Assembly (NCBI GenBank): GCA_964385875.1
Contig: CAYLRL010000001.1
Location: 112,131 to 176,130, forward strand
Length of the DNA stretch: 64,000 bases
From: an uncultured Syntrophales bacterium
Lineage (GTDB): Bacteria > Desulfobacterota > Desulfomonilia > Desulfomonilales > Desulfomonilaceae
Reading direction: 5' to 3'
Shown here piece by piece: positions 228 to 23,546 of this stretch. Positions within the stretch are counted from its first letter, which is position 1; every line of letters begins with the position of its first letter. The notes under the pieces are model-generated. The model was not told the DNA's origin. It searched no databases and was given only the letters and a program-made list of their open reading frames with translations. Position numbers and translations under genes: made by a program.

Positions 228-533
228 CGGTGTCTCCTTCTCGTCCCGGAGCGGATCGTCTGTCCGTCTGGGAGATCGGGGGGGTATTCACGTACACGTG
301 GACCTTTGGTCGATTCTACCGTGAGCGGAGAAGGCTCGTCAACGGACGATCCGGAGTGGGCCTGTTCGGATCGGAGAGCCTCCCTTGACAGGCCGCCGGC
401 TCGTTCACTAAATGTAGAAGGGTTACATGGAAGCCCGAACCACGGCGGTCTCCCCGCGAGCGGCTTCGGCCGCAAAGGTGGCGCCCTCCGGCCGGTCTTC
501 CGCTCCATCGATCTTAATCCGGAAGGACTCGCT

Positions 534-1604
534 ATGGCGGAATATTCCGAAACCGACGCATTCCCTCGCTTACTCGTCACCGCGGTGGGCAGCATGCCCC
601 ATACGGACTGCGCCGAAGCAGTGGACCTGGTGTTGGCCGGCTTATCCGAGGCGCCGCATGCGCCTCAGCTCTCGCGCATGGATCCCCGTGAGCAGATGTG
701 GATTCAATTTACCGAGGGTCTGCCGGGATTTACCGTTGATCTCGAGAACCTAAATTATTACTTCGACACGACCGGTGATCCCCTTGCCGCGGTTGAAGCG
801 TTCTACGCGGAATATCTCACCGTCTTCGAAGGCGGGCCGGCCGACGCGTTCGCGGTCGGCCGCGAATTCGGGCTCGGGATTCATATGTTTCTTGAGCGAC
901 TCAAGAACGAAGGCCGGAAGCGGCCGTTCGTCAAGGTGCAAGTGACGGGCCCCCTCAGTTTCGCGCTGACCGTTACCGATGAGGAAAAGAAGCCGATTTT
1001 CTATCATCCTTTGTTCAAAGACGTCGCGGTCAAGGGGATGGGACTGAAAGCCGCATGGCTCGTGGATCAGTTCAAGCCGTTCGCGGAGAATGTGATCGTC
1101 TTCTTTGACGAGCCCAGTTTGAGCGCGTACGGATCGTCCGCATTCCTTGGGGTTTCCAAGGAAGACGTCATAGAATCGCTCGATGACGTGATCGGCATGG
1201 CGCTGAGCCGCGGCGCCATTCCCGGCGTTCATTGTTGCGGCAATACGGACTGGGGTTTGCTTGCGGAGACGCAAACGCGCATTATTAACTTTGACGCGGT
1301 CGATTACATGGAGACCGTTCCCATCTACGCGTCGCAGCTGGACGATTTTCTTCGGAAAGGCGGCGTGTTCGCATGGGGGGCGGTTCCGAACACGGATCAA
1401 GCGCTGAAGGAGTCCGCCGACGTTGTGCTGAAGCGAACCGAGGAGGGCTTGAACCTCCTGGAGAAGGCGGGCATGGCTCGGGATAAAGCCGCGGAAAAGA
1501 TGATCCTGACCCCGGCGTGCGGATGCGCCGGCATGAGCATGGACGGGGTGGCGGCCGTGTATCGCATTCTTGGGGAACTCGATGCGCGGGCGGGCGCCGC
1601 GTGA
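534..1604 (+). CDS. MetE/URO-D-like zinc methyltransferase-family protein (cobalamin-independent methionine-synthase-like)
   Basis: In ORF 69..1604, protein-like sequence only starts at ATG 534 (MAEYSETDAFPRLLVTAVGSMPH). The HCCGN and TPACGC motifs resemble the His/Cys zinc ligands of MetE C-terminal-domain-type enzymes. The upstream 155 codons are R/G/S-rich and look non-coding. Confidence 0.55.
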   Translation: MAEYSETDAFPRLLVTAVGSMPHTDCAEAVDLVLAGLSEAPHAPQLSRMDPREQMWIQFTEGLPGFTVDLENLNYYFDTTGDPLAAVEAFYAEYLTVFEGGPADAFAVGREFGLGIHMFLERLKNEGRKRPFVKVQVTGPLSFALTVTDEEKKPIFYHPLFKDVAVKGMGLKAAWLVDQFKPFAENVIVFFDEPSLSAYGSSAFLGVSKEDVIESLDDVIGMALSRGAIPGVHCCGNTDWGLLAETQTRIINFDAVDYMETVPIYASQLDDFLRKGGVFAWGAVPNTDQALKESADVVLKRTEEGLNLLEKAGMARDKAAEKMILTPACGCAGMSMDGVAAVYRILGELDARAGAA

Positions 1605-1657
1605 ATTGATTCAACCGATTGTTTTCCAATCCCGAACGGGATCGAGAGGATACCGAG

Positions 1658-2428
1658 ATGAGCACCACATTGGCCGTTGCAGGCAAAGGCGGAGTAGGGA
1701 AGACATCGTTCACCGCGCTGGTGATCAAGGCGCTGCTGGACGAAAAGAAGACCCCGCTGTTGGCCATCGACGCGGACTCCAACTCGAATCTCCATGAAGT
1801 CCTCGGAGTGCGGGAACCCAAAAGCGTCGGCTGCGTGCGGGAAGACAGTCGTAAGCTCGCGGACGACATTCCCGGCGGCATGACCAAGGACCGATTCATG
1901 GAGTACCAAATTCAGGCGTGCCTCGAAGAAGCGGACGATTTCGACTTTCTCTCGATGGGCCGCCCGGAAGGTCCGGGCTGCTACTGCATGGCGAATCACA
2001 TTCTGCGCGACATCATCGGCAAGCTCACCGGCAACTACCAGTATGTGGTGATCGACAATGAAGCCGGTATGGAGCACCTTTCCCGCCGCACGGAAGAGGA
2101 GGTGGATCATCTCTTCATCATATCGGACCCGGCGCCCCGAAGCCTCCGCACCATCGGGCGCATCACCGAGCTGATCGACGAACTCGGCGACCGCATTCGC
2201 AATAAGCACTTCCTGCTGAGCAGGTCGAACGGCGCGGACGACGAAGCGAACGAATCGATCAAGAAAGAGATCGAGAAACTGCCGTACCCGCCGGAGGGCA
2301 GAATCCCGTATGATGAAGCGCTGGTCGGCCTGGATATGGCGGGTAAGCCGCTTCTCGAGATTCCTTCCGATGCGCCGTCGTACGTCGCGGTGAAGTCCAT
2401 CCTGAAAAATTTGGGCGTCATGGCCTGA
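1658..2428 (+). CDS. MinD/ParA-family P-loop ATPase, CooC/AcsF-like (nickel-insertion accessory ATPase type)
   Basis: ATG 1658 is preceded by GAGAGGA. It has a deviant Walker A (AGKGGVGKTS), a DADSNSNL motif, a CxC motif (GPGCYC) typical of CooC, and a Walker B (VVIDNEAGMEHL). Confidence 0.8.
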   Translation: MSTTLAVAGKGGVGKTSFTALVIKALLDEKKTPLLAIDADSNSNLHEVLGVREPKSVGCVREDSRKLADDIPGGMTKDRFMEYQIQACLEEADDFDFLSMGRPEGPGCYCMANHILRDIIGKLTGNYQYVVIDNEAGMEHLSRRTEEEVDHLFIISDPAPRSLRTIGRITELIDELGDRIRNKHFLLSRSNGADDEANESIKKEIEKLPYPPEGRIPYDEALVGLDMAGKPLLEIPSDAPSYVAVKSILKNLGVMA

Positions 2429-2718: not shown

Positions 2719-2928
2719 ATGGTTTACACGGACGCTCAAGCCTGGTTGGACGCTCACGAGGTCATTGAGTGCAAACCGCTCAAAGGTCGCTGGACGAGAA
2801 AGACCTGTCTCGAGATTTCTCGACGCGCCCAGAAGACACCGAGAAACGCGAAATCCACTGCGCGGAGCGGCTCGCTCCGAACGGTTCCGTGCGCGAATTG
2901 TCCGATTCTGGCGGCTCTGGAAAAATAG
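2719..2928 (+). CDS. Small hypothetical protein (69 aa, four Cys including CANC)
   Basis: ATG 2719 is preceded by GGGAGAGGAA. Sequence: MVYTDAQAWLDAHEVIECKPLKGRWTRKTCLEISRRAQ...PCANCPILAALEK. No family recognised. Confidence 0.35.
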   Translation: MVYTDAQAWLDAHEVIECKPLKGRWTRKTCLEISRRAQKTPRNAKSTARSGSLRTVPCANCPILAALEK

Positions 2929-3228: not shown

Positions 3229-6200
3229 CTACGACGACGCCTGCAGTCCGGCGACGATCCGGTCGATCTGATCCTTGACGATCTCCTCGACGGTATCGAG
3301 AAGCTTTGTCTGTATTTCCGTCCGGAGCATGGTGACGATTTCTTCTCGGTTGGGCATGAGCCCCTGGGTCCGTTCGTCGAAGAGCCCGCGGGATACCCGT
3401 TCCAGCCAGACCCGCTCGGGAAGCGCGTCGCCGATGGCGAGCGCGACGCCTTGGCTGAGCACTTCTTGGAACCGTTCCTTGCCGGGGATCGACTGCCGTA
3501 CTGCTTCCAGCATAACTTCGGGTTTCGGGAGCATTTGCGGCAGCGCGTTGTGGAGGTCCGCTCGATCGATCGCGTCGCCGATTCTCCCTTCAAGCGTGAC
3601 TCGCACATCCGCGTGGATCTGCTCCGGTGTCGGCAAGAGCGTCACCAGCCGCTGCTCGATGTGAGCAAGGATCTCTTCGGACGAGGGCGCTCCGGCCAGG
3701 GCTCTATCAACGCGCTCAAGGACCTCTTCCCGCTGCGGGATAGACCCGAGCGCGACGTCGATCCGTTGATTTACCGTCTCTCGCGACGGTATGCTTTCGA
3801 GGGCCCGCTCCAGTCGAGCCATGACTTCATCTCCCGACACCACCTGCAGGGCCGTGTCGATCCGATCGGTGAAGACTTCCTGAGAGGGAACCGCCTCACG
3901 GAGGAGGGCGTCCACACGGTCGGTAACGGCCGAGGCGGGGGGGAATGCGTCCATGGCTTGATCGACTCGAGCGTTGATCTCTTCGTTCGTCGGAAACGCG
4001 TCGATAGCTCGATCAATGCGGGCGTTCACGTCATCCGCGGTAGGAAGCTCGCCGAGGACTTTGTCCAACCGCTCGCTGACCATCTCCGGCGATATCGATT
4101 TCGAGATGGCGTCATCCAGCCGTTCGTTTATCGAGTCGAGAGAGGGGATTCGTTCAAGCGCTCGGTCCATATGCTCCGAGACGACGGTCGACGAAAACGC
4201 CTCCTGAATCGCTTCATCCAGTTTGCTCGTCACTGCGTCGGACGACGGGAAGTCGGCGAAGGCCGCTTCCGCACGCTTGGCCACTTCATCCGCAAGGCCG
4301 ATCTCGTTCAGGGTCGCGTCGAGCCGATCCGACACGATCTGCTGCAGGGCCGACGCCTGCAGGCCCTCTTCGACAAGCTCCGAAACACGCTCCGAGGAGG
4401 GAATGCCGGTCAGGGCTTCATCGACGCGGGCCTTGAGATCCTCTTCCGACGGCACGCCCTTGAGCGCTTCATCGACGCGGGCGCTGATCTCCTCGCCGCC
4501 GGGGAGGCCCGCCAACGCGTCGTCGATCCGTTTGATGATCTCTTCCTGAGACGGCACACCCTGCAGGGCGGCGGTGATTTGCTCCTGAAGGCTCTCCGCC
4601 TCGGGGAACATCCCCTTCATGGTTTGGTCGAGGCGTTCGAAGACCGCATCCTGCGTCGGGAGGGCTTCCTTGCAGAGCTCGTCGACGCGCGACATGATCG
4701 CGTCTCTTTCGACCGCGCTCTCTTGAAGGCCCTTGCCGAACGCCTCCAGGAATTCATCCTTGGACGGCAGGACCTCTCTCAACGCGCTCGTCAGCGCTTC
4801 CGAAAAATCCTCCTTCCTTGGTGCAAAGCCTTGAACCGCGGAATAGATTGAACTCCGTACCTGATCGTCAGGTATGGCTTGCTTCAACTGAGTCTCAGCG
4901 ATTGTCCTGAACTGGCCCAGGAGATCGTCAACGGAGGGCATCGCATCCGCGGGGATCGCGGCCGTATAGGTCCCGGTGGGGGCGGGCGCCTCCGGCGGAA
5001 TCGGAGCGGGCCGCGGTTCGGGCGCCGCCTTGTCGAGCGGCTGGGGCATGACGGGAGGATAGTCGGGCTCAGGGATGTCCTCCAAACTCAATTCCTCCGT
5101 TTCGCGACCGACCGGCGGTTCGTCGAACGCAATCTCATCGAGTGAGATGTCTTCGGTTACCTCGAGCATGGGCTCGCCTTCGTCCACGCCTCCGAGGATA
5201 AGCTCGTCTTCTTCTTCCACCGGCGCAGCGGCTTGAACAGGCGGCGGTTCGGCAACCGCGCCCGAGTCTTCTTCATCGAGGGAGATTTCCCGGTCAAGGC
5301 TTACGTCGCCGGTTTCTTCATCAGGGAACTTCTCGGTGGGGAATTCTTCCGTGGGCAACTCCTCGCTGAAGAATTCCTGCGTGGCGATCTCCTCTTCGGA
5401 GACTTCTTCAAGGCTGAGCTCGTCTTCAAGCTCTTCGCCGCCTTCTTCGAGATCCATCTCCCCCAGGTCCATCTCGGGCGGGGCTTCGTGGGGTTCCTCA
5501 ATGTCGACGTCCGCCCGCATTCCGGGCGGGGTCTCGTCGGAGATATCCAGGTCGATTTCGCCGAGGTCTTCATCGGACATGGGGTCGACCTCGATATCTT
5601 CCATGGGAATGGTGGCGTCGGAATCGAGGGCAGCCGGTCCGGAGCCTGCGGCTGAGAATTCGGCGCCCTCCTCGAGGCTCATTTCGGTATCTTCTGTGAA
5701 ATCAATCCCTTCGGTGTCGTCTTCTCCCCCAAGCTCAACCGACTCGAAGTCATCCATCTGCATGGTTGCGGTCTCGGTACCGGTTTCCGCGCTCTCCTCG
5801 AGATCAAGATCGAGCTCGGAGGCGTCCAATTCCGCGGCCTGCTCGGTCTCCATGTCGCCGATGTCGGTGTCCGTATCGGTATCGCCGATCCCCTCCAGTT
5901 CTTCCATTTCCATCTCGCGGATTTCCGTGTCTTCCTCGAGATCGATAACGTCGAGCTCCGCGCCGGACGTGGGATCGGAAACGAGTGAATCGTCGTCCAA
6001 TTCGAGATCTTGCGATGTCAGCACCGAGGAGGGCTCCTGAACCTCGAGAATCTTTCCCACTTCGGTGTCGTCCAGATCGATGCGCTCCTCATCCGCGCCT
6101 TTTTCATCCAGGTCGAGGGCCTCGTCCGTATCCATTTCGAGTTCCAGGCCCAATTCATCCACGTCCATGTCCACCGTTACCGAGTCCTTGGGGATCGGAC

Positions 6201-7026
6201 CGGTGTCGTCGCCCTCGGACGTGACCGAGCCGAAATCGGGAAGGGGGCCTTCTTCGGCTGCGTCAAACTCTTCCTCTCCCTGATCGAGACCGTCCACCTC
6301 GACTTCCAGATCCTCGTCGCTGTCCGAACCACCGAATTCCGGGGCCACGTCGGCCACGAGTTCGATCGTGGGTTCGAGCTCGGGCGCGTCCTCCTGATCG
6401 TCGAGCCCCATATCGTCGAGGTTCAGACGCACAGTGTCCTCATAGGTGTCTTCGCCTTCCAGATCGCCCGCGCTGTCCAGTTCGGCCACCAGCGTGCCCG
6501 TGTCGATCTCGACGGTGTCGCCCACATTGGCGGACGGCTCTTCCTCTTCCGCCGCGGCGCTGGACATGGCGAGGAGCTCTTCCGTCATCGCGCCGGAATC
6601 ATCGTCCGAAAAATCGATAAGGATATCGCCGTCATCATCCCCGACCACATCGGTCTTGCGGAGTCCCAGAAGGGACTCGACCGTGCTCCTCAGGACCGAC
6701 CCATCGATGGGCTTGGAAAGATATCCGTCCGCGCCCGTTCCTTGAACTTCCGACGGCGGCGGACTGCCGGGGTCCCCCGTCATCAGGAGGATCGGCACAT
6801 CCTGGTAGTCGGATGAACCTTTAATACCTTTGACGATTTTCCAACCGGGGGCGTCGGAAAGGATGGCATTGAGTATGATAAGGTCCGGCTTTTCGCTCTT
6901 GATCGCTTTCTTGAGTTCGCCCGACGTGGAGACCGCCACAAACTGGCTGTTCTCCTGCGGGAGCAAGCGCGCCACAGCTTCTCTGCTTGCAGGATCTTTG
7001 TCGGCCACGACGATCCGGTAAGGCAT
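3229..7026 (-). CDS. Giant response-regulator protein (1265 aa): N-terminal receiver domain, ~525-aa D/E-rich tract, P-rich hinge, ~25 tandem 17-aa repeats, C-terminal helical tail
   Basis: ATG at 7026 (MPYRIVVADKDPASREAV...). The receiver hallmarks are present: DKD near the N-terminus, PDLIILNAILSDAPG with the phospho-acceptor Asp, and LLMTG...GADGYLSKP. This is the longest ORF in the region. Confidence 0.85.
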   Translation of the reverse strand: MPYRIVVADKDPASREAVARLLPQENSQFVAVSTSGELKKAIKSEKPDLIILNAILSDAPGWKIVKGIKGSSDYQDVPILLMTGDPGSPPPSEVQGTGADGYLSKPIDGSVLRSTVESLLGLRKTDVVGDDDGDILIDFSDDDSGAMTEELLAMSSAAAEEEEPSANVGDTVEIDTGTLVAELDSAGDLEGEDTYEDTVRLNLDDMGLDDQEDAPELEPTIELVADVAPEFGGSDSDEDLEVEVDGLDQGEEEFDAAEEGPLPDFGSVTSEGDDTGPIPKDSVTVDMDVDELGLELEMDTDEALDLDEKGADEERIDLDDTEVGKILEVQEPSSVLTSQDLELDDDSLVSDPTSGAELDVIDLEEDTEIREMEMEELEGIGDTDTDTDIGDMETEQAAELDASELDLDLEESAETGTETATMQMDDFESVELGGEDDTEGIDFTEDTEMSLEEGAEFSAAGSGPAALDSDATIPMEDIEVDPMSDEDLGEIDLDISDETPPGMRADVDIEEPHEAPPEMDLGEMDLEEGGEELEDELSLEEVSEEEIATQEFFSEELPTEEFPTEKFPDEETGDVSLDREISLDEEDSGAVAEPPPVQAAAPVEEEDELILGGVDEGEPMLEVTEDISLDEIAFDEPPVGRETEELSLEDIPEPDYPPVMPQPLDKAAPEPRPAPIPPEAPAPTGTYTAAIPADAMPSVDDLLGQFRTIAETQLKQAIPDDQVRSSIYSAVQGFAPRKEDFSEALTSALREVLPSKDEFLEAFGKGLQESAVERDAIMSRVDELCKEALPTQDAVFERLDQTMKGMFPEAESLQEQITAALQGVPSQEEIIKRIDDALAGLPGGEEISARVDEALKGVPSEEDLKARVDEALTGIPSSERVSELVEEGLQASALQQIVSDRLDATLNEIGLADEVAKRAEAAFADFPSSDAVTSKLDEAIQEAFSSTVVSEHMDRALERIPSLDSINERLDDAISKSISPEMVSERLDKVLGELPTADDVNARIDRAIDAFPTNEEINARVDQAMDAFPPASAVTDRVDALLREAVPSQEVFTDRIDTALQVVSGDEVMARLERALESIPSRETVNQRIDVALGSIPQREEVLERVDRALAGAPSSEEILAHIEQRLVTLLPTPEQIHADVRVTLEGRIGDAIDRADLHNALPQMLPKPEVMLEAVRQSIPGKERFQEVLSQGVALAIGDALPERVWLERVSRGLFDERTQGLMPNREEIVTMLRTEIQTKLLDTVEEIVKDQIDRIVAGLQASS
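3553..4821 (-). repeat. In-frame tandem array of ~25 units of a 16-18 aa motif (P-S/T-x-E/D-E/D-hydrophobic-x-x-R-hydrophobic-D-x-A-hydrophobic-x-x-hydrophobic)
   Basis: Read directly from the translation: PSQEEIIKRIDDALAGL / PGGEEISARVDEALKGV / PSEEDLKARVDEALTGI / ... / PTADDVNARIDRAIDAF / PTNEEINARVDQAMDAF / ... / PQREEVLERVDRALAGA. Confidence 0.75.
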
Positions 7027-7747
7027 GTCAACCTCGCGGTGGGAGCAGTGATTTTCTTTAAAAATACAAGAAATTCGGCCCAAATGTCAAGTATATTGCA
7101 AGGTAAACCTACGAAACCTCCACTGCGCTATACCCGGAACTCTTCAGGCCTGCTCATCTATTATAACCGATTCCGCCGATATTTTAACATAATCCTTCAT
7201 GGAAATCACGTCGCATGACGCGTCGAACGAACGACCCGTATACCTCGCTTATAAGAAAACAACGGCGGGCTTACGGTCAGCCCCCCGGCGTATCCCCGTC
7301 CGTCGGCGCAACCAAGGGAACTTCATTCCTGAGCGAATGTCTAAACTCGCGTCGATAAGTCCCCGGCAATCGTCCGGCGTGCGGCTGCCGAAATCATGTC
7401 TCAGACCGAAAGGAATCGACCGTGTCCGCGACGCGGGCCCCCGCGCCGAACTTCATCGCGGATCGAAACGGCCCCGCGGCCGCGCTGTTCATCGCAGCGC
7501 GTTCGGCCCCGCGGTTCGTGAAAGGCAAAGCGTCGGGAGATTGGGAACGCCGCGTTCCACGGTCCCGTCTGATGCGCGGGCTGAGGGGCGTGTCGACGAC
7601 TCCGGACGACGTTCGGCATCGGCGGTTGGATGATCTAGAATCGGCTGTAACTAAAAGACTTAAGGCCAGGGAAATTAGGGCATAACTTGACTTGTTAACG
7701 AGAATGTTCTAAGGAACGCTCTCAATCGGAGAAAGGAGAAGGCCTCC

Positions 7748-8503
7748 ATGCATGAAGTCCTCGCCGCAGCATTCCCTACGCAGTCCGTCAGCCCCCACGG
7801 CATGTGGGCCATCATTATGGGGGCCGGCGTGGTTGTCAAGGGAGTTATGGCGCTGCTGCTGCTCTTTTCCGTCGTCTGTTGGGGAATAATCCTGACCAAG
7901 GCGATCACGCTTTCACGGGCGCGCAAAGACACCCAGCTTTTCTTCGACGCGTTTCGCGAATCCCGCAAATTTTCGCTCTTGTACGCGGAAGCCAACCAAC
8001 TCAATTTCAGCCCGTTGGCTCAAGTCTTTAAAGCCGGGTACGCGGAGCTGAACCGACTTTCACGGCTGCAGTCCTCTCAGGCGGCCCGAACCGCGGAATC
8101 CCCCCATGAACCGGAGTATGAACGTTCGGGCATGGACAACGTGGTTCGTTCGCTTCAGCAGGCGGTCACGTCCGAACGGACGCGGCTCGAACGGGGAGTG
8201 AACTTCCTGGCGACCACCGGATCCGCCGCGCCGTTCATCGGCCTCTTCGGAACGGTTTGGGGAATCATGGAGTCGTTCCGGCAGATCGGAATCATGAAGA
8301 GCGCGTCGCTGGCCGTGGTCGCGCCCGGTATCGCAGAGGCGCTCATAGCCACCGCCGCGGGATTGGCCGCTGCGATTCCTGCGGTCATCTTTTACAATTA
8401 CTTCCTCAATCGAATTAACACTGTCTCGATGGAGATGGACAACTTTTCATCCGAGCTCGTCAACATCATCGAGCGTATTTATCTCAACCGCAAAGCCCAT
8501 TAG
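7748..8503 (+). CDS. tolQ: TolQ (MotA/TolQ/ExbB proton-channel family)
   Basis: GAAAGGAGAAGG precedes ATG 7748. The protein has three TM segments and a C-terminal TVWGIM...LAVVAPGIAEALIATAAGLAAAIPAVIFYNYF motif. Gene order is tolQ-tolR-tolA-tolB-pal-cpoB. Confidence 0.9.
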   Translation: MHEVLAAAFPTQSVSPHGMWAIIMGAGVVVKGVMALLLLFSVVCWGIILTKAITLSRARKDTQLFFDAFRESRKFSLLYAEANQLNFSPLAQVFKAGYAELNRLSRLQSSQAARTAESPHEPEYERSGMDNVVRSLQQAVTSERTRLERGVNFLATTGSAAPFIGLFGTVWGIMESFRQIGIMKSASLAVVAPGIAEALIATAAGLAAAIPAVIFYNYFLNRINTVSMEMDNFSSELVNIIERIYLNRKAH

Positions 8504-8546
8504 TTGCGTCCCGAGACGGGCGGACCGCGCTGAGGAGGCGCTTTTC

Positions 8547-8981
8547 ATGGCTTTCAAAGTGAACGGATCGCAACGGACCGCCATGGCGGAGATCAATGTG
8601 ACGCCGTTGGTGGACGTCATGCTGGTGCTGCTCATTATCTTCATGGTGACCGCGCCGATGATGCAGGAGGGCGTGTCGGTGGACCTGCCGGCCGCGCAGG
8701 GCAAACCGCTGGAACGCCGACCCGACACCGAAGAGGTGGTGATATCCATCCGCGATAAGGGCGGAATATTCGTCAACGATAAGGCGGTCAAAGAATCGGA
8801 GCTGACCCAAACCGTCCTGAACGCGACCAAAAAGTCCCCTTCGACACAGGTCTTCCTCCGCGCCGACAAGAATGTGGCGTACGGCGTGGTTGTGCGCACC
8901 ATGGCCGCGCTCAAGGGCGCAGGGATAGCAAATTTGGGTGTGATTACCACGCCTTCGGAGGATTCCGGCACGGCTCAATGA
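8547..8981 (+). CDS. tolR: TolR (ExbD/TolR family)
   Basis: It carries MAEINVTPLVDVMLVLLIIFMVTAP, the ExbD/TolR TM segment with the conserved Asp. Its position after tolQ also supports the call. Confidence 0.9.
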   Translation: MAFKVNGSQRTAMAEINVTPLVDVMLVLLIIFMVTAPMMQEGVSVDLPAAQGKPLERRPDTEEVVISIRDKGGIFVNDKAVKESELTQTVLNATKKSPSTQVFLRADKNVAYGVVVRTMAALKGAGIANLGVITTPSEDSGTAQ

Positions 8982-9874
8982 TTCCCATTCCCAACCAGGG
9001 GCGAGATTCCGTCTCGCCGGCGATGTTGATCGCGTCGTGCATTCTCCACGGAGCGATCCTCCTCTGCCTGGTTTTGGCGCTCGGTCCCGCGGCTCATCGA
9101 CCCGCGCCGCAGGATCGAGACGTTACGCGCGTGAAACTCGTCGAATACAAACCCGGGCCGCCGACCATCGAGAAACTCGATACCCCGTCTTCATGGACCG
9201 AACCGGCGACCAACGCGTCGCGCATGCGGTTGGAGAAGTCCGAACAGTCCAAACCCGACGCCCCGGACGCGCAGGTGAAGCGGAAGCGGCTCGCGGCCGT
9301 CGATAACAACGGTATCAAGTTTCGCAAACGGAAGCCGGCGCGGCGGAGCGAGCGGCCCGCTCCCAAGCCCAAGGAGCCTCAACGCGCGGACAAAGAGAAG
9401 AAGGAAAACTCGGACGAACGCCTCGAGCGGCTCATCGACCGAATTCGGAAACGCGTGGCCCAAAAGAAGGCGCGTGAAAAGCCCGCCGCCGGCGCCCCCG
9501 GAACCGAAGCTCGGGGAGATATCCGGACCGATCCCGAAGTGGCTCGGTGGCTCCTTGCCGTGAGGAGTGCGGTCAACGCGCAATGGCCCGCGCTGTGGAG
9601 GAAAGAAGCCCGGGATCTCGCGGTCGAGATCGGCGTGCAGGTCGCGGACGACGGTCGAGTGACCCATGCCGGCGTCGATAAAAGCTCCGGCGACAGATTC
9701 TTCGATCAATCGGCTCTTAGAGCAGTTTGGCTGGCCTCACCCTTTCCGCCGGTCCCCGAAGCCGCGCGCGAGGAACTGCGCCGAGAAAAGGGACTGGCCC
9801 TGGAATTCACCCCCGGCGGACTGCAATGGGGAAATCAACGCGACGGTTCCTCGCGCCTGCGCACGGCCCGCTGA
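8978..9874 (+). CDS. tolA: TolA-like protein (TM anchor, K/R/E/P-rich linker, TonB/TolA-type C-terminal domain)
   Basis: The ATGA start overlaps the tolR stop. It has one N-terminal TM segment, a charged linker and a ~90-aa C-terminal globular domain. It sits between tolR and tolB. Confidence 0.65.
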   Translation: MIPIPNQGRDSVSPAMLIASCILHGAILLCLVLALGPAAHRPAPQDRDVTRVKLVEYKPGPPTIEKLDTPSSWTEPATNASRMRLEKSEQSKPDAPDAQVKRKRLAAVDNNGIKFRKRKPARRSERPAPKPKEPQRADKEKKENSDERLERLIDRIRKRVAQKKAREKPAAGAPGTEARGDIRTDPEVARWLLAVRSAVNAQWPALWRKEARDLAVEIGVQVADDGRVTHAGVDKSSGDRFFDQSALRAVWLASPFPPVPEAAREELRREKGLALEFTPGGLQWGNQRDGSSRLRTAR

Positions 9875-9910
9875 TCGCCGGTGATAGAGGGAAAGAGAGC
9901 GCTCGATACT

Positions 9911-11266
9911 ATGACCCCGGCCCCACAGCAGTTACATGACAAACCGGAAGGGACCCGGCCGAAACCGGTCGCTCCCGCCGCGCGACGACGGCGCCTTTCG
10001 TCACGATTCATTCATGTTAGGGGACTCGTGATCCTGATGTCGCTCGCTGCTCTTGTTTTCGTCGGACACAACGCGGCGGGCAAAGTCAGACTATCGATCG
10101 AGGGCTCCGGCGCGGCAATGCCCATCGCGGTTCCCGATTTCAGGGTCGCTTCCGGACAATCCGCCGCCGGAACGGAATTGGCCGAGATCCTCCGACGAGA
10201 TTTATACCTCACCGGCCTTTTCGACATTATACCCGGTCGGCCGTCAGGGCCCTCCCCTGAAGCTCCGGACTTCGAACGATGGCTCCAAACCGGCGCGCAA
10301 GCGATCGTCCTCGGCGTGTTCCAGGATTCGGGCGGCCGAGGCGTCCTCGAAGGCCGAATGTACGATACGGCCACACGCGGCCTCATACTCGGCAAGCGGT
10401 TCAGCGGAAGCCCCGACGCGCAACGCCTCATGGTCCACACCCTCGGCGATCGCATCCTCGCAAAGCTCACGGGCGTACCCGGCTGCTTCACGAGCAGAAT
10501 AGCCTTTGTGGGCCTGGGGAAATCCCGAGAAGTCTACTCCATGGACTTCGACGGTCATAACCTGCGCCGAGTGAGCGCAACCAACAGCATCAACATGTCG
10601 CCCGAATGGTCGCCCGACGGGTCCGTGTTGATCTTCACGTCGTACGTGCGGGGCAAGCCGGATTTGTGGGCGCTGAATCTCAAGACGGGAAAGCGTCGGT
10701 TGGTTTCGGGTCGGGCGGGGATAAACGCGTCGGGGCGGTATTCGCCTGACGGCGGGCGGATAGCGCTGTCGACAAACTATAAAGGAATACCTAAGATATT
10801 TGTAATAACTACTCAAGGAAACATAATAAAAAGGTTGACTGACGGGAGGGGTAATGATATCTCTCCCACGTGGTCGCCGGACGGCGCCTCCATCGCTTAC
10901 GTCTCCGACCACACGGGGTCTCCCCAGATCTACGTGATGTCGGTCGATGGGGGCCGAGCCGAGCGACTCACATTCGAGACCAACTACAACACCGACCCGG
11001 ACTGGTCGCCTCGAGGGGACAGGATCGCGTTTACCGCGCGGGTCGAAGGACGGTTTCAGATATGCGCCATGAGAACGGATCGAACGGATTTCAGGGTTTT
11101 GACGAGCCAGGGAACCAACGAGGATCCGGCATGGTCGCCCGACGGCAGAATGATTGCGTTTTCATCCAATCGGGACGGTTCGAAACGGATCTACGTGATG
11201 GACGCGTGGGGGCGTGTGCAGGTCCCGGTGTCGCCGATTCCGGGAAAGTCTCCGGCATGGCGGTGA
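9911..11266 (+). CDS. tolB: TolB periplasmic beta-propeller protein
   Basis: Repeated SPxWSPDG motifs are present: SPEWSPDGS, RYSPDGGRIA, SPTWSPDGASIA, DPDWSPRGDRIA and DPAWSPDGRMIA. ATG 9911 is preferred over GTG 9881, the track start. Confidence 0.9.
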   Translation: MTPAPQQLHDKPEGTRPKPVAPAARRRRLSSRFIHVRGLVILMSLAALVFVGHNAAGKVRLSIEGSGAAMPIAVPDFRVASGQSAAGTELAEILRRDLYLTGLFDIIPGRPSGPSPEAPDFERWLQTGAQAIVLGVFQDSGGRGVLEGRMYDTATRGLILGKRFSGSPDAQRLMVHTLGDRILAKLTGVPGCFTSRIAFVGLGKSREVYSMDFDGHNLRRVSATNSINMSPEWSPDGSVLIFTSYVRGKPDLWALNLKTGKRRLVSGRAGINASGRYSPDGGRIALSTNYKGIPKIFVITTQGNIIKRLTDGRGNDISPTWSPDGASIAYVSDHTGSPQIYVMSVDGGRAERLTFETNYNTDPDWSPRGDRIAFTARVEGRFQICAMRTDRTDFRVLTSQGTNEDPAWSPDGRMIAFSSNRDGSKRIYVMDAWGRVQVPVSPIPGKSPAWR

Positions 11267-11316
11267 GTGTTGAGAGAGGGACGGTCGAAACGGATCGCGA
11301 AAGAACGAGGAAAGCC

Positions 11317-11817
11317 ATGTTCATGAAGAGTGTCCCGCTGAAGGCGGCGATAGCGCTGTGTATCCTCGTGGCCGTCGCCGGCGGGTGTTCCCGGAAGATA
11401 GTGAAGCCCACTCCGCAACAGCCGGGCCCGACGGTTCCGCACCATCCCGGGTCGATTGCGGAGGCGCCGCTCGAGGCGGTTCAGGCGCAGTTGAAAGAGG
11501 TCTACTTCGGGTACGACACCTATGTCTTGACCCCCGAAGCTCAGGCCGCTCTCCAATATAACGCTGAGTTGCTCAGACGAGCGCCGCAGGCCAAGGTGGT
11601 CGCGGAAGGCCATTGCGACGAGCGTGGGACCGACGAGTACAACCTTGCCCTGGGCGAGCGCCGCGCCCGATCCGTGGTGGATTATCTCGTGACGCTCGGG
11701 GTCGAGCCTCATCGGTTGTCAACCGTCTCCTACGGCGAGGAACTTCCGGTAGACCCGGGACATAACGAAGCCGCATGGGCGAAGAACCGACGCGTCTATC
11801 TCCGTGTGACTCAATAA
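11317..11817 (+). CDS. pal: Peptidoglycan-associated lipoprotein Pal (OmpA-like domain)
   Basis: ATG 11317 follows GAGGAAAG. It has a lipobox (LVAVAGGC) and an OmpA-C motif (GHCDERGTDEYNLALGERRA...NRRV). Confidence 0.9.
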   Translation: MFMKSVPLKAAIALCILVAVAGGCSRKIVKPTPQQPGPTVPHHPGSIAEAPLEAVQAQLKEVYFGYDTYVLTPEAQAALQYNAELLRRAPQAKVVAEGHCDERGTDEYNLALGERRARSVVDYLVTLGVEPHRLSTVSYGEELPVDPGHNEAAWAKNRRVYLRVTQ

Positions 11818-11830
11818 TACGGGCGGGGGA

Positions 11831-12706
11831 ATGACCATTATGTGGAGGGAGATACACGGGCATCGCAGGCCGCGCGCGGTCGCGATCCTTACCGCGGCGG
11901 TCGCGATGATGATCGGCGGCTGCCTCACCCGGACGAACAATCCGCCGCTTCCGTACGTCAAACCCGCGCAGTCAGTTCCACAACAGGATCAGGCGAAGCT
12001 CCACCTTGCGGCTCGCCTCCAGGAGATCGATCAGGAGATCGCCCGGCTTCACGGGATCGTCGAACGTCTCCAGGCGGAGGGCGATCCGTCGGCCGCGCTC
12101 CGCAATCTCGAACAGCGTGTCGCGCTCATCGAGCGACAGCTTGGTATCGAGCCCCCCGCGCCGGCAAGCGAATTCACCCCGGCTCCGTCCCAAGAACAAA
12201 CAGCGCCCCCCGTGCCGCCGGCGCAACCGGCCCCTCCGGCGAATCAACCGCCGGCCCCGCCGGCCGTTCAGCAGCCGGCGCCTCAGCAGCATGCCCCCGA
12301 CCAGCGGGTCGAAATCCGGAACAAGCCGCTTCCCACCGATGAGCAGTCATATCGCCGCGCGTACGCGCTGGTCCGGAGCGGATCCACCTCGGAGGCGCTC
12401 CCTCTGCTCCGGGAATTCGTCACTCAGTATCCCAAGAGTCGGTATGTGCCCGACGCGCTCTACTGGATCGGCGACGCGCTCTTCGAAGAAGGGCGCTACG
12501 ATGAAGCCGTGCTTCAGTTCGACCGCGTCGTCAAAGAGCACCCCGGGTCGAAGAAGGAGTTGAGCGCGCTCCTCAAGCTGGGGCAATCATTCGCCAAAAT
12601 GGGCGACCCCCAGTCCTCCCGCATCATCTATGAGAAGCTTTTGAAAGAGCATCCCCACTCGGCCCAAGCCAGACACGCGAAGACACTCCTGAAAGAGCTT
12701 GAATAG
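11831..12706 (+). CDS. cpoB: Tol-Pal system protein CpoB/YbgF (coiled coil + P/A/Q linker + TPR)
   Basis: A signal-like N-terminus is followed by the coiled coil LQEIDQEIARLHGIVERLQ. The C-terminal TPR region reads YRRAYALVRSG...YPKSRYVPDALYWIGDALFEEGRYDEA. It lies directly after pal. Confidence 0.8.
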   Translation: MTIMWREIHGHRRPRAVAILTAAVAMMIGGCLTRTNNPPLPYVKPAQSVPQQDQAKLHLAARLQEIDQEIARLHGIVERLQAEGDPSAALRNLEQRVALIERQLGIEPPAPASEFTPAPSQEQTAPPVPPAQPAPPANQPPAPPAVQQPAPQQHAPDQRVEIRNKPLPTDEQSYRRAYALVRSGSTSEALPLLREFVTQYPKSRYVPDALYWIGDALFEEGRYDEAVLQFDRVVKEHPGSKKELSALLKLGQSFAKMGDPQSSRIIYEKLLKEHPHSAQARHAKTLLKELE

Positions 12707-12899
12707 CCCCGTCGCGGGCGCCTTCGATCTCTCCGCCGACCGTCTTCAGGCGCACACCCACACGGCGCCGTATCACGCGAACCCGGCTGAATGCTTCTGC
12801 GCGGCCGAAAACGCACACAACAGCCGTCGCACGCTTCGGTCGGTCTCAGCGCGAAACACCGTCGCAGGCGACGCGGTCACAATCTCGTTCAAGCGCGCC

Positions 12900-13463
12900 T
12901 TACCGCGCGGGATAGCCTTGATACTGCGGGGCCGCGGCGCCCTGCTGCGGATAACCGTACCCCTGTTGCGCCGGCGCCTGATAGGCCTGAGGCTGCTGAT
13001 ATGCAGGGGGTTGCTGATACGCCTGAGGTTGCTGATACATCTGAGGCTGCGGAGCCTGATAGGCCTGCGGTTGAGCAGGCTGTTGGTACATTTGCGGCTG
13101 CTGCGGGGCCGCGCCCGCGTAACCCTGGGCTTGTCCGGGCGGGTAGTACGTGGTCGTCGGCTGCTGATACTGCTGAGGAGCGCCGTATCCGTACTGGGGA
13201 GGGGCCTGTCCGCCTCCGGGAGCATACTGGGTGTTCGCCTGGGGCGCCCCCTGTTGCCCCGGCGGGCGGGAAGAACCCGAATAGAACGGATTGAAATTGT
13301 AGATGGGATTCCCGGACCACCAAGCTCGTACCTCGCCGATGGCCGAGTTACCGACCGCGTTGCGGCTGGACGATCCCGAGAAGAGATAATCGAGGAAGCC
13401 GTGCGCCGGAGCGGACATTACCATGATTGTCAGCAGCGCAGAGCCGGCAATATACTTTTTCAT
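12900..13463 (-). CDS. Secreted low-complexity Q/P/Y/A/G-rich protein (187 aa)
   Basis: The signal peptide MKKYIAGSALLTIMVMSAPAHG is followed by a ~45-aa ordinary segment and then QQPQAYQ-type degenerate repeats. The mirror-frame ORFs on the other strand are composition artefacts. Confidence 0.6.
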   Translation of the reverse strand: MKKYIAGSALLTIMVMSAPAHGFLDYLFSGSSSRNAVGNSAIGEVRAWWSGNPIYNFNPFYSGSSRPPGQQGAPQANTQYAPGGGQAPPQYGYGAPQQYQQPTTTYYPPGQAQGYAGAAPQQPQMYQQPAQPQAYQAPQPQMYQQPQAYQQPPAYQQPQAYQAPAQQGYGYPQQGAAAPQYQGYPAR

Positions 13464-13704
13464 GATCGGCGCCTCCCTGGAAAGAGCGGTGCTGTGTGCG
13501 TTTACTCTTTTGGATTCTCCCTGTTCTCGGCGTCAGTCGCGTCGGTGCGGCGATCCCTCGCCCTGCGACAGCCGTTTCGAGAACCTTTTTAATTCTACAG
13601 CATTGCACGGCATTTGTCCAGAATGGGAACAAAGGAACCCGGCTGCGCGGTCGAGCGCACGTTTTTCGATGGGAGCGCCGGCGGATTGGAATCGGAGGGA
13701 AGGT

Positions 13705-15732: not shown

Positions 15733-18700
15733 TCATGCCATTTCACGCTCGATGACGCCGAGCACGTCATGGACGCCGTGAGGCCGCTTGTCCGGATTCT
15801 TGTCCAAACATTCCAGAATGAGCGGATCGATCCAATCGGGAACCGTCGGATTTGAGAGTCTCGGGGGCGCGGGAAAAACCTTGGCATGTTGGAACTTGAA
15901 ATCGTCGAAGGACGGCCCTTCGAACGGCAGTTCCCCGGTGAGGATAAAGAAGAGCAGCACCCCCAGCGAATAAACCTCGGCCGCGCGCTCCTTGATCACG
16001 CCGGAGCGCGTGCGGAAGAACTCCGGCGGCATATACGCCGGGTTCATGCCGGGCTCCTGCCGGCGAGGCTGCTTGGCCATGGTCAAGTTGCGATATATCT
16101 GCGAGTAACCGAGGCTCGCAATCCTGCACTCGGACAAATCGCCGCTGACGAGGATCTGCGAAGGCTGAAGGTGAAGGTGGAACGCGCGACGAATGCGGCC
16201 GTCCCGCCCTTTGTGATTGTGCGCGTACGCCAGTCCCCTGATGATCGCGCGGGCCAGTTCCATCCGAACATCCAAATCGATGCTTTCTTCCGAAGTGAGG
16301 ACCTGTTCGAGGGTTCGCGGCAGATACGGATGAACGAGCCCCTGTCGATTCTGACCGCTTTTGACGATTTCTTCCAGCCGCAGGACGTTCTCGTGTTCCA
16401 TATTCCACGAGAGTTCGGCCACGTCCTTGACGAATTGCTCGAAAACGTTCGGCTCGAGGAGATCGAACTTGAAGATCCGAAGTAACGCGGTCCTGCCGGT
16501 GTTGACTTCGGATGCGGCGTGCCAGACACCCCATCCGTCCGCGGAGATGACCCCGACCTCTCGGTAGGCCATGGACCCCCTCGTGGGACGGAAAAGTTGC
16601 ATCTCGTCCACTTCACTCCGCATCGACAGGGCTTCATGGCTCGAGACAAAGGTCGTCGCGTCTCGAAGGGGCTGCGGCTCGAGATCGACCGCGTGGACTA
16701 CCTGCTCGGGCTCTTCATAGACTGGACCCGGTTTGGGCGCCGGCGCGGTTTCTTTCGTCGGTTTCTCCGCGTTCTGCTCGGTCCGAGATTGCGGGTTCTT
16801 CTCAGGAAGAGCGCCGGGCTTCGCTTCTTCAGTCGGAGCGGCTTTCCGGGGCTCTTCAGCCGGAGGACGAGCCTTCACCGGAGCGGTCTTCTCTTTTGCG
16901 GCTTTTTTTGCGGCGGGTTTGCCGACGCGTTGCGAGGTTCTCGCCCGCTTCTCCTCGGCCTTCGGGTCCGCGGGAGCTTCGGTTTTCGCTGTGGCGGCCT
17001 GCTTCCGGGCCTGCTTTGGAGCAGGTTTTGCCTCCTCGTGGCCCTCTACCGGCTTGGGGGCCTTCGCCTGCGTCCTTTTCGGCGATTCGGACGACGGCGC
17101 GGCCTGCGTCGCGGCGCGTGATTTCGCATGCTCCGCGTACTGTTTGTACGCCTTCTGTTTGGGATTTCGCTTGGCGGCCTCCGCAATGACCCGAAGGGCC
17201 AACGGATCGGTGGACCTTTTTCCGATCAGCTCCTGCGCGCAGAGCTCGATAACGTCGTCCGTGCCGGTCTGCGTGACGAGATCGAAATGTCCGCCCGCAA
17301 CGGCAAGTTTAGCCGCGCGCTTGGCCGCTTCCCTGTCGCCCGGCCTCTGCCTGCACAGTTCCAGGACGTGTTTGAGCGCCTTGCCGGGCTCGTTTCGCTT
17401 GTTGTAGGCTTCGAGGAGCGCCCGGCGGATGACCGCGTTGTTCGGTTCGTGTCGGATAAGGGCCTCGAAGATCCTGACCGCCTTGTCATCGCTTGCTTGT
17501 CGTTTGACGAGTTGCTTGAGGATCTTCCCATTGAGTTCCCGGTTGCCCTCCTTGATCGTCTCCTCGATCATATCATTGTCGATGACGCATTGAGCCAGGT
17601 CGGACAGATAATCGTGGCCGGGCCCGTCGATCTCATGAAGCAACCGAAGTTTTTCGGTGTATTTCTCCAGATCCCCCTGAGTCAGATAGACCGTGGAAAG
17701 CATTTTGTTCACACCGACCGCGCGCGGCTGGAACTCGAGCACCTTTTCGTACGTCGCGACCGCGTCGGAATGAACTTCGGAGTTGGCGAGATATATCTGC
17801 GCGATCTTCTTGACGATCACCGGATTGCCCTCGGAGAGGGCGTCCCGCACGCGGCCCTGTTCGACGTACAATCGAGCCGCCCGTCCCATGTAGTCTTCTT
17901 CGGCGTTCTTGTCGAGATTCTGGAGCATGGAAAGATGACTTACCGCGTTGCGGAAGTCGCCGGAAGCTTCATACTTGGCTGCCAGCATACGATGGAGCGC
18001 CATATCGGTCCGGTCATACTCGAGGCATTTCTTATAGATTCGTTCCGCCTCGTCGCTCAGGTTCTTGTCGTCCAGAAACTCCGCGCAGATCCTCAGGATG
18101 AGGTCCTTGTTGTTGCGTTCGAGCGCATGATCGGTCGCGTGATTCCGGGTGAGCATGGTCACGGAGTTCCGAATCATCTCGGGATCGGCTGCGTCGGCTT
18201 CCATGAGAGCGGTCAAATGCTCGACGACTTTGGCGGGATTGCCGAGATGGTGATACATGTCATAGAGCTTCTTGCGAATCTCGATGACTTCATCCTTGTC
18301 GGTCTCGACGTGGAGAAGGTCTTCGTATATCTCGGCGGCTTGGGCCTTCTTGCCCATCGCGCTCATCAATTCCATGCCCAGCGCGTAATCCTCGAGCGAT
18401 TTCAGACCGCCGAGGTCGCGCATCTTTTCCCAGGCCATCGCAGCTTCGTGGAACTGATTGGTTCGCTGATAGCAGACGGTCAAACGCCGGTACACGTCGG
18501 GGTTGCGCACTTCGCCGCCCTGGAGCGCGAGATACCGTTGAAATTCCCTGATTGCGCCTTCACAGTCGCCCGCTCGAAAGAGGTCTTCCGCTTCCCGAAT
18601 CAACTCCTGGATTTCGACGGCTCTACGGTCGAGGCCGGCCGACTTGCGCGCGCGTACGAAGAAGAACGCTGCGATAGCCGCCGCGGCGAAGAGGGCGATG

Positions 18701-19050
18701 ACCCCCATGATGATATATTGGGTTACGACGCTTTGACGCTCGGTCTTGAAGGGCACGGTGAACGCGGCGTGGACGTATCCTTCGCGTCCGCTGGGAAGTC
18801 GAATACGGACAAAGCCCGACTCGCGTCCAAGCGCCTCGAAGATGTCGTCTTGCAGCGCGATATCAATTATTTCGGCGCCGTGTCCGGGTTCTTTATATAT
18901 CTCCGTGTTCATTCCGTTGGGGGCTTGGATTTTGATGAGTTCCCCCACTTCTCCCGTCTGAGCCCAAACGGGAGCTCCGAGGATTCCCCCTACGGCCAAA
19001 CACGAAAGCGCGGTAATAATCAACAGTGTTCTCGGCAGAAACGTTTTCAC
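15733..19050 (-). CDS. Multidomain membrane protein: signal peptide, SH3b-like domain, TM helix, long TPR region, K/A/P/E-rich linker, C-terminal Ser/Thr-kinase-like (predicted catalytically dead) domain
   Basis: Signal peptide MKTFLPRTLLIITALSCLAVGG...AQT. The SH3b-like segment reads FVRIRLPSGREGYVHAAF. The TM segment is IIMGVIALFAAAAIAAFFFV, followed by many TPR-like helices. The last 277 aa align by eye to Hanks kinase subdomains. Confidence 0.8.
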   Translation of the reverse strand: MKTFLPRTLLIITALSCLAVGGILGAPVWAQTGEVGELIKIQAPNGMNTEIYKEPGHGAEIIDIALQDDIFEALGRESGFVRIRLPSGREGYVHAAFTVPFKTERQSVVTQYIIMGVIALFAAAAIAAFFFVRARKSAGLDRRAVEIQELIREAEDLFRAGDCEGAIREFQRYLALQGGEVRNPDVYRRLTVCYQRTNQFHEAAMAWEKMRDLGGLKSLEDYALGMELMSAMGKKAQAAEIYEDLLHVETDKDEVIEIRKKLYDMYHHLGNPAKVVEHLTALMEADAADPEMIRNSVTMLTRNHATDHALERNNKDLILRICAEFLDDKNLSDEAERIYKKCLEYDRTDMALHRMLAAKYEASGDFRNAVSHLSMLQNLDKNAEEDYMGRAARLYVEQGRVRDALSEGNPVIVKKIAQIYLANSEVHSDAVATYEKVLEFQPRAVGVNKMLSTVYLTQGDLEKYTEKLRLLHEIDGPGHDYLSDLAQCVIDNDMIEETIKEGNRELNGKILKQLVKRQASDDKAVRIFEALIRHEPNNAVIRRALLEAYNKRNEPGKALKHVLELCRQRPGDREAAKRAAKLAVAGGHFDLVTQTGTDDVIELCAQELIGKRSTDPLALRVIAEAAKRNPKQKAYKQYAEHAKSRAATQAAPSSESPKRTQAKAPKPVEGHEEAKPAPKQARKQAATAKTEAPADPKAEEKRARTSQRVGKPAAKKAAKEKTAPVKARPPAEEPRKAAPTEEAKPGALPEKNPQSRTEQNAEKPTKETAPAPKPGPVYEEPEQVVHAVDLEPQPLRDATTFVSSHEALSMRSEVDEMQLFRPTRGSMAYREVGVISADGWGVWHAASEVNTGRTALLRIFKFDLLEPNVFEQFVKDVAELSWNMEHENVLRLEEIVKSGQNRQGLVHPYLPRTLEQVLTSEESIDLDVRMELARAIIRGLAYAHNHKGRDGRIRRAFHLHLQPSQILVSGDLSECRIASLGYSQIYRNLTMAKQPRRQEPGMNPAYMPPEFFRTRSGVIKERAAEVYSLGVLLFFILTGELPFEGPSFDDFKFQHAKVFPAPPRLSNPTVPDWIDPLILECLDKNPDKRPHGVHDVLGVIEREMA

Positions 19051-23471: not shown

Positions 23472-23546
23472 TGGAGGCGGCTGGCGGATTCGAACCGCCG
23501 TATAACGGTTTTGCAGACCGTCGCCTTACCACTTGGCTAAGCCGCC
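23472..23546 (-). tRNA. tRNA-Cys (anticodon GCA), CCA encoded
   Basis: The minus strand reads GGCGGCT-TA-GCCA-AGTGGTA-AGGC-G-ACGGT-CTGCAAA-ACCGT-TATAC-GGCGG-TTCGAAT-CCGCC-AGCCGCC-T-CCA. It forms a full cloverleaf with a TTCGAAT T-loop. Confidence 0.9.

Follow-up and report, generated by a model that had tools for sequence, protein, structure and literature searches.

We analysed a 64,000-nucleotide (nt) window from the genome of an uncultured Syntrophales bacterium (family Desulfomonilaceae; contig CAYLRL010000001.1, positions 112,131 to 176,130) and studied a gene that lies divergently beside the tol-pal cluster. The gene occupies positions 3229–7026 of the window on the minus strand, and its open reading frame (ORF) translates into a pseudo-response-regulator protein of 1265 amino acids (aa). 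It starts with an ATG at 7026, which a GAGG ribosome-binding site precedes by 5 nt, and ends with a stop codon at 3229–3231. The start is consistent with the N-terminus of the orthologues, which reads M-[SP]-Y-R-I-V-V-A-D-K-D. A sigma-70-like promoter match (TTGACA-18-TATTTT, 10 of 12 positions) sits 35 nt upstream of the start codon at 7061–7090 on the minus strand; it comes from a consensus scan only and is no evidence of function. An earlier note on this DNA had described the protein as a response regulator carrying about 25 tandem copies of a helix-forming repeat of 16–18 residues in the interval 3553–4821, which corresponds to residues 736–1158.

The 17-residue repeat array is real. Autocorrelation of residues 736–1165 (BLOSUM62, 200 shuffles) peaked at lag 17 (z = 14.8), with further peaks at lags 34, 51, 68, 85 and 102 (z = 10–12), and the seven peptides that the earlier note had quoted as examples are all present in the translation. 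From the periodicity, a layout of the sequence in register and a hidden Markov model (HMM) of the unit, we delimited the full array to residues 697–1164 (3535–4938, minus strand), with about 27 units when degenerate ones are counted. Its core, laid out in rows of 17, consists of 19 strict-register units at residues 808–1130 (3637–4605, minus strand), including one unit of 18 and one of 16 residues, and is flanked by about six degenerate units upstream (697–807) and about two downstream (1131–1164). The unit HMM recovered 20–21 units. The three analyses support both the unit length and the approximate number of units given in the earlier note. In a six-frame translation of the window, a three-unit profile of the family matched this ORF only (E = 1.3e-113). 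Tandem Repeats Finder detected no DNA-level repeat in the array, and its only matches were at 4373–4395 and 5324–5384. The mean identity between units is 30% at the amino acid and 47% at the nucleotide level (29% out of register). Hence, the low identity between units and the lack of a DNA-level repeat argue that the repeat is old and has been kept through selection at the protein level, and that it was not recently amplified.

The units of the window protein have the consensus P-S-x-E-E-[IV]-x-x-R-h-D-x-A-L-x-[AG]-h (h, hydrophobic; x, any residue), with the highest information content at P1, E4, V6, R9, D11, A13 and L14. A logo made from 380 distinct units of 28 family proteins peaks at the same positions. 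Within this family set, position 1 is Pro in 90% of the units, position 2 Ser or Thr in 80%, position 4 Glu or Asp in 85%, position 6 Ile, Val or Leu in 89%, position 9 Arg or Lys in 93%, position 10 hydrophobic in 97%, position 11 Asp or Glu in 86%, position 13 Ala in 66% and position 14 Leu, Ile or Val in 84%. The array thus shows the membership pattern of the unit type, with a period of 17, Pro1, Ser/Thr2, acidic residues at 4/5, hydrophobic residues at 6, 10, 14 and 17, and Ala13.

Several observations agree with the helical character that had been ascribed to these units. According to DSSP, each unit contains one helix of 12–13 residues and a loop of 4–5 residues in both AlphaFold models described below. 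The helical hydrophobic moment of the array is 0.42, compared with 0.27 in shuffled sequences, and has its maximum at 100 degrees (z ~4.9). The strongest covariation was between positions i/i+3 and i/i+4 inside the helix, and it appeared independently in both copies of a unit pair; all signals were within-helix, and none was detected between adjacent units that would distinguish an antiparallel packing from other arrangements. The autocorrelation signal is stronger at lag 17 than at lag 34, which argues for one helix per unit and against a hairpin. Read with the established rules of helix capping, P-S-x-E-E-I would form an N-cap with Pro at N', Ser/Thr as the N-cap, Glu at N3 (capping box) and Ile/Val at N4 (hydrophobic staple), and [AG]-h-P would form a C-cap with Pro directly after it. 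Projected onto a helical wheel, positions 6, 10, 13, 14 and 17, all hydrophobic, line up in a single stripe, with Arg9 on one edge and Asp11 and Glu4 on the other, a layout that would fit helices lying side by side and joined via a ladder of salt bridges. The array has a net charge of −50.

The repeat is in none of the curated libraries that we searched, and it remains unnamed; the earlier note had not been able to name it either. Searches of Pfam-A with the whole protein and with 63 three-unit segments gave nothing credible for the array, and NCBIfam (whole protein and both halves) and PADLOC gave no match. A single marginal match in PHROGs (E 3.9e-4) was to an unnamed family. We found no relative of the array among solved structures, the best matches in the Protein Data Bank (PDB) having E = 0.24 (phmmer) and E = 0.028 (51-column profile), both of which are noise. 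TPR, HEAT, Sel1 and other helical repeats of Pfam gave no match at E ≤ 1 with either the whole protein or the 63 segments. We rejected a repeat of the TPR/HEAT/Sel1 type because there is no profile match and because period 17 is stronger than 34, compared with the hairpin units of ~34–47 residues in those families. AlphaFold, run on 576 aa as a single sequence, gave a mean predicted local distance difference test score (pLDDT) of 46.8, and a run with a six-row alignment, composed of non-overlapping 8-unit blocks from the window protein and its orthologue P0001, gave 58.7. The predicted template modelling score (pTM) was 0.23–0.32 across both runs, and neither yielded a usable tertiary structure; every Foldseek match to these models had E > 1 and is meaningless. 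With these scores and without covariation between units, the solenoid of short helices suggested in the earlier note is no more than a possible arrangement. A literature search found no paper on this protein, this 17-residue repeat type or a Desulfomonile response regulator at tol-pal.

The N-terminal domain is a CheY-like receiver with a degenerate active site (residues 4–122; 6661–7017, minus strand). Residues 6–117 matched PF00072 (E = 6e-13; score 49.4 bits, cutoff 30.2), and sequence matches in the PDB were to PleD, PhoB, CheY and FrzS (2gkg, E = 2.3e-6). At the phospho-acceptor position, which aligns with Asp53 of PleD, the protein has Asn53 (codon at 6868–6870, minus strand; PDLIILN versus PDIILLD in PleD), and Lys10 (codon at 6997–6999, minus strand; IVVADK versus ILVVDD in PleD) stands in place of the second Asp in the acidic (Mg2+) pocket. 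Of the five catalytic residues of the receiver, two are replaced. Asp9, Thr83, Tyr102 and Lys105 are kept, and P0001 has the same Thr83 (LLMTGD) and Lys105 (YLSKP) as the window protein. Of 21 orthologue loci, 20 have Asn at the acceptor position and one (L012) has Ser, the A-D-K-D motif that includes Lys10 is invariant or nearly so among orthologues, and the canonical acceptor Asp was found only in a short paralogue (P0042). Receiver folds lacking the acceptor Asp or other catalytic residues are known as pseudo-receivers or aspartate-less receivers (PMC4395418, PMC12632262), and the domain in the window protein is one of these. Hence, the receiver proposed in the earlier note is genuine, but the loss of the phospho-acceptor Asp and of the second pocket Asp makes it a pseudo-receiver and not a working response regulator. 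Pfam, NCBIfam and PADLOC identified no other domain outside the receiver, which agrees with the previous statement that the protein has no DNA-binding or enzymatic output domain. Receiver identity across 25 orthologues is 66%.

Between the receiver and the array lies a polyanionic region at residues 126–643 (5098–6651, minus strand), defined by its composition and by the alignment of the 25 orthologues, and without a family match. Residues 126–690 contain 203 Asp and Glu and only 12 Lys and Arg, which gives a net charge of −191. This region had been regarded as a very long acidic spacer, and acidic it is, but it is not featureless: it contains nine short motif islands with 55–88% identity among the orthologues (residues 138–155, 166–183, 194–209, 218–225, 281–293, 323–345, 360–377, 547–569 and 619–630). 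Examples are DFSDDDSGAMTEELLAMS, VGDTVEIDTGTLVAEL, YEDTVRLNLDDMGLD and EPTIELVA, as well as DSVTVDMDVDELG, VIDLEEDTEIREMEMEEL, QEFFSEELPTEEFPTEKFP and PMLEVTEDISLD. The sole sizeable DNA tandem repeat in the gene (5324–5384, period 15/30) codes for PTEEFPTEKFP, a conserved motif of the acidic region that lies outside the 17-residue array. A Pro/Ala-rich linker follows at residues 644–696 (4939–5097, minus strand; PEPDYPPVMPQPLDKAAPEPRPAPIPPEAPAP), which is weakly conserved and gapped relative to P0001. The protein ends with a conserved helical region at residues 1165–1265 (3232–3534, minus strand), identified by its conservation and by predicted long helices and without a family match. It contains LPERVWLERVSRGLFDERT (1202–1220), within an island at 1201–1222 that is 81% conserved, and a predicted terminal amphipathic helix of ~38–41 residues from residue 1225. 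Mean identity across the 25 orthologues is 53% for the C-terminal region and 26% for the array.

We next asked how the protein is distributed. A word-indexed homologue search returned P0001 as the sole full-length orthologue, plus fragments, and the family became visible only in exhaustive HMMER and genome scans. Among 1.84 billion representative proteins, the HMMER scan yielded only 41 matches at E ≤ 1e-3, about 18 of them orthologues, and a scan of one genome per GTDB species gave 20 orthologous loci. Most of these loci are labelled Desulfomonile, Desulfomonilaceae or Desulfomonilales, and the remaining ones carry only the generic labels of metagenome-assembled genomes (MAGs; uncultured delta proteobacterium, Pseudomonadota, Syntrophaceae). 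Clear orthologues were found in one lineage only, the Desulfomonilaceae/Desulfomonilales. The exact sequence of the window protein is absent from a collection of 15 billion proteins.

Orthologues are 897–1630 aa long and their arrays span 236–1013 aa. Protein length follows array span closely (r = 0.98) but is unrelated to the length of the acidic region (r = 0.05), so that the array is a length-variable module between two conserved ends. We discarded a unit-by-unit test of orthology because unequal pool sizes biased it. One of the largest orthologues (L018, 7718–12610) has ~1630 aa with an array region of ~1000 residues, and P0009 is similar (1608 aa). The short paralogues P0023 and P0042 (480 aa) have only 2–3 units. 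P0019 (611 aa) lacks the receiver, and its repeat array precedes some of the same acidic motif islands, which suggests that the modules have been shuffled. The repeat gene is truncated in a frameshift-like manner in five loci from long-read MAGs (L009, L010, L016, L019 and L020).

The cluster tolQ-tolR-tolA-tolB-pal-cpoB lies at 7748–12706 on the plus strand (Pfam MotA_ExbB, ExbD, TonB_2, TolB_N/PD40, OmpA and TPR/YfiO; Pal lipobox at 11317). The 21 related loci all share with the window the divergent placement that the earlier note had pointed out. Synteny is just as strong on the other flank, which carries a small conserved ORF and a CooC/MinD-type ATPase and, at a greater distance, genes for an M23 peptidase and a Ser/Thr kinase, and it extends over the whole ±10 kb region among the related loci. 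Because unrelated genes on both sides are kept equally, the synteny with tol-pal weighs little and is uninformative on function. Searches of Pfam and NCBIfam gave no homology of the window protein to TolQ, TolR, TolA, TolB, Pal, CpoB or YbgC, and the relationship is one of adjacency only.

The small ORF (2719–2928, plus strand; 69 aa, MVYTDAQAWLDAHEVIECKPLKG...CANCPILAALEK) is convergent with the repeat gene and lies just downstream of it. It has 65–81% identity in 18 of the 21 related loci, which exceeds the conservation of the repeat protein, and no NCBIfam match. An ORF without Pfam or NCBIfam match (504–1604, plus strand) is followed 15 nt later by the P-loop ATPase of the CooC/MinD/ParA type (1619–2428, plus strand; PF01656), and this pair is kept downstream in nearly all related loci. 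ParA/MinD-type ATPases are frequent partners of hub proteins; this one has a CooC-like appearance and its own operon. The repeat gene and tolQ are separated by 721 nt (7027–7747), compared with ~400–430 nt in relatives. This stretch contains no Rfam family; we rejected a 144-aa ORF within it (7199–7633) as a gene because it has no match in any related locus. Directly after cpoB, a 297-aa ORF (12699–13592, plus strand) has no Pfam or NCBIfam match, and only two of the related loci gave matches to it, which were weak and partial. Most related loci also show synteny for a gene at 15733–19050 (minus strand), whose 1105-aa product has an SH3_3 domain, numerous TPR repeats and a Ser/Thr kinase domain at its C-terminus. 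A tRNA-Cys (GCA) at 23472–23546 (minus strand) is the sole Rfam/ARAGORN match in the window.

The weak tail of the exhaustive search contained proteins with similar units. The unit type is not unique to the window protein: 17-residue periodic units are present in the C-terminal tails of M56/BlaR1-like membrane proteins (P0027, P0030, P0033 and P0041; for example MPTEEELERIIEQAMAD) and in the small protein P0025 (LPTKSEMNEAINEAIKD), and similar 17-residue units are present in the phage tail-fibre-like proteins P0024 and P0028. Neither Pfam nor NCBIfam covers any of these arrays. A profile of the family, made from the 63 three-unit segments, aligned in register with a profile of the M56 and P0025 units over 51 columns (hhalign, probability 97.8%, E = 6.6e-13). 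The likeness could reflect homology or convergence on a helix-capping motif with an amphipathic helix, the latter being possible because periodic sequences inflate profile scores. The M56 and P0025 arrays lack the Arg9/Asp11 signature, which is specific to the Desulfomonilales family, and the M56-like arrays, which follow a membrane peptidase domain, are probably extracytoplasmic. Together, the units of the M56 tails, P0025 and the phage proteins may represent a wider repeat class that has no name.

What could such a protein do? We tentatively favour the idea, a serious possibility that still falls short of being probable, that it is a cytoplasmic scaffold or tether that works without phosphorylation and has a helical rod of variable length. 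The pseudo-receiver, unable to accept a phosphoryl group, would probably be a head for docking or dimerisation, similar to that of FrzS. The polyanionic region of ~520 residues is probably disordered, and its short hydrophobic-acidic motifs resemble partner-binding sites. The ~25 separately capped amphipathic helices would make up an elongated helical-repeat rod whose length evolves via gain and loss of units, and the C-terminal region with its long amphipathic helix would probably oligomerise the protein or anchor it to a partner. A fixed receiver and a fixed C-terminus with a variable middle are the typical layout of a tether or ruler. Several points weigh against this idea. There is no confident tertiary model (pLDDT 46.8 and 58.7, pTM ≤ 0.32), and without covariation between adjacent units the packing of helix against helix is unproven. 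The net charges of the array and the acidic region are extreme, and charge rather than a rod may be what is functional. The gene neighbours give no informative signal either, as the surrounding ±10 kb are syntenic within one family.

Some of these points fit a multivalent motif array, in which each 17-residue capped helix binds one copy of a partner, for example the subunits of a filament or lattice, and the protein acts as a template or ruler like nebulin or tandem WH2 domains. The surface-type residues Arg9, Asp11 and Glu4 are conserved as strongly as the hydrophobic positions, copy number varies widely among orthologues, and the missing covariation between units and the low tertiary confidence of AlphaFold are what independent motifs would give. 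However, the free protein would then expose a five-position hydrophobic stripe every 17 residues, and no partner is known; the 63 segments gave three Pfam matches to Thymosin/WH2, but these do not come near the threshold (best E = 0.0079) and carry no weight. We consider this explanation rather unlikely. The polyanionic region could instead be the functional core, forming a polar hub like PopZ or HubP or a condensate, or soaking up cations or basic proteins, with the array only oligomerising or spacing it. A net charge of −191 over 565 residues, the nine conserved islands, their presence without a receiver in P0019 and the nearly constant length of the region among orthologues are in line with this, but the strong position-specific conservation of the 380 units would be left unexplained, and Pfam and NCBIfam searches revealed no LysM, transmembrane or FimV domain and no similarity to PopZ, which makes an acidic core improbable.

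A dedicated cytoplasmic partner or regulator of Tol-Pal, which might bind the cytoplasmic loop of TolQ and link it to the divisome, would account for the tolQ-divergent arrangement in the window and all 21 related loci. Since all of these loci come from one family or order and the CooC-like ATPase, the M23 peptidase and the Ser/Thr kinase are equally syntenic, the gene order is not specific, and exhaustive scans of proteins and of genomes of GTDB species found no clear orthologue in other lineages with Tol-Pal; the chances of such a role appear slim. Slimmer still are those of a working, phosphorylatable response regulator with the repeat array as its output. The receiver fold keeps Asp9, Thr83, Tyr102 and Lys105, and P0042 has the canonical Asp, yet nearly all orthologues carry Asn53 and Lys10, and the FrzS receiver, which has lost the acceptor Asp, binds neither Mg2+ nor a phosphoryl analogue (PMC1974792). 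The prospect that the array is an artefact of low complexity or composition, or that the ORF is non-coding in GC-rich DNA, is negligible. Several long ORFs do overlap on the opposite strand, but the receiver domain is in this frame only, the protein is conserved from end to end in more than 20 genomes, and the periodicity is far above that of shuffled sequences; we therefore rejected this explanation.

Returning to the scaffold or tether, one can extend the idea to a bolder one, which we offer as speculation that is on the whole unlikely to be right: the 17-residue capped-helix unit would be a new class of repeat with one short helix per unit, shared by the pseudo-receiver scaffolds of Desulfomonilales, the M56/BlaR1-like tails and possibly the phage fibre-like proteins, and in the window protein it would act as an evolvable ruler or tether that keeps a polyanionic, motif-bearing hub and a C-terminal anchor a fixed distance apart, the anchor being at an envelope or division site near Tol-Pal. 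To our knowledge, all curated alpha-repeat units are longer than this one-helix unit of 17 residues. If the array folds regularly, it would add a type with one helix per 17 residues to the catalogue of helical tandem repeats, and the 380 collected units, with related arrays in M56/BlaR1-like proteins, make up a family ready for Pfam. The protein is also a clear natural case of a pseudo-receiver whose fusion partner is neither a DNA-binding nor an enzymatic output, which bears on the question of what pseudo-receivers do (PMC12632262). The family sits in a poorly studied, mostly uncultured order, and its immediate value lies in annotation and structure and not in mechanism.

Overall, parts of the protein resemble several known systems. 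Like the array, the exchangeable apolipoproteins (11/22-mers) and the alpha-solenoids of TPR, HEAT and LRV repeats consist of tandem amphipathic helices bounded by Pro or Gly and are elongated. The array differs in its period of 17, compared with 11/22, 24, 34 or ~40 residues in those repeats, in having one helix per unit and in lacking a Pfam match, and its net acidic charge argues against lipid binding. The NUMOD3 motifs of homing endonucleases, whose arrays in P0026, P0036 and P0040 were among the weak matches of the exhaustive search, have tandem units of ~17 residues as well (S-E-E-T-x-x-K-[IM]-S-x-A-x-x-G). These are strongly basic and DNA-binding, in contrast to the acidic array, and we rejected an identity with NUMOD3 because of this composition and because PF07460 gave no match. 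The polar hubs HubP/FimV and PopZ use very acidic, repeat-containing cytoplasmic regions to recruit several partners and combine conserved terminal modules with a variable middle. HubP/FimV have a LysM domain, a transmembrane segment and a FimV C-terminal domain, none of which was found with Pfam or NCBIfam in the window protein, whose N-terminus is a cytoplasmic receiver, and neither these proteins nor PopZ have sequence similarity to it.

Besides these acidic hubs, the nearest functional analogues include two proteins of Myxococcus xanthus. RomR has a canonical receiver, which is followed, as in the window protein, by Pro-rich and acidic low-complexity regions; it is much smaller and has no 17-residue repeat array. 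With its receiver, Pro-rich linker and Glu-rich tail, RomR is a polar scaffold (PMC2034494). FrzS (also AglZ) has, like the window protein, a receiver without the acceptor Asp in which the switch Tyr is kept, a long all-helical C-terminus and no enzymatic or DNA-binding output. It acts as a localisation scaffold (PMC1974792, PMC9811614). The helical part of FrzS is a continuous coiled coil, whereas the helices of the window protein have 12–13 residues and are broken by Pro every 17 residues (Pro in 90% of the units). Moreover, FrzS has no polyanionic region of 565 residues, comes from another lineage and shows no sequence relationship beyond the receiver, and we rejected membership in the FrzS/AglZ family because the window protein lacks a long uninterrupted coiled coil. 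The family described here is confined to one lineage and uncharacterised, and the general kind of protein to which it belongs, in which a pseudo-receiver is joined to a long scaffold that is helical, acidic and rich in repeats, is already known. Indeed, FrzS is established as a pseudo-receiver that is fused to a long helical domain and works as a scaffold (PMC1974792, PMC9811614, PMC12632262).

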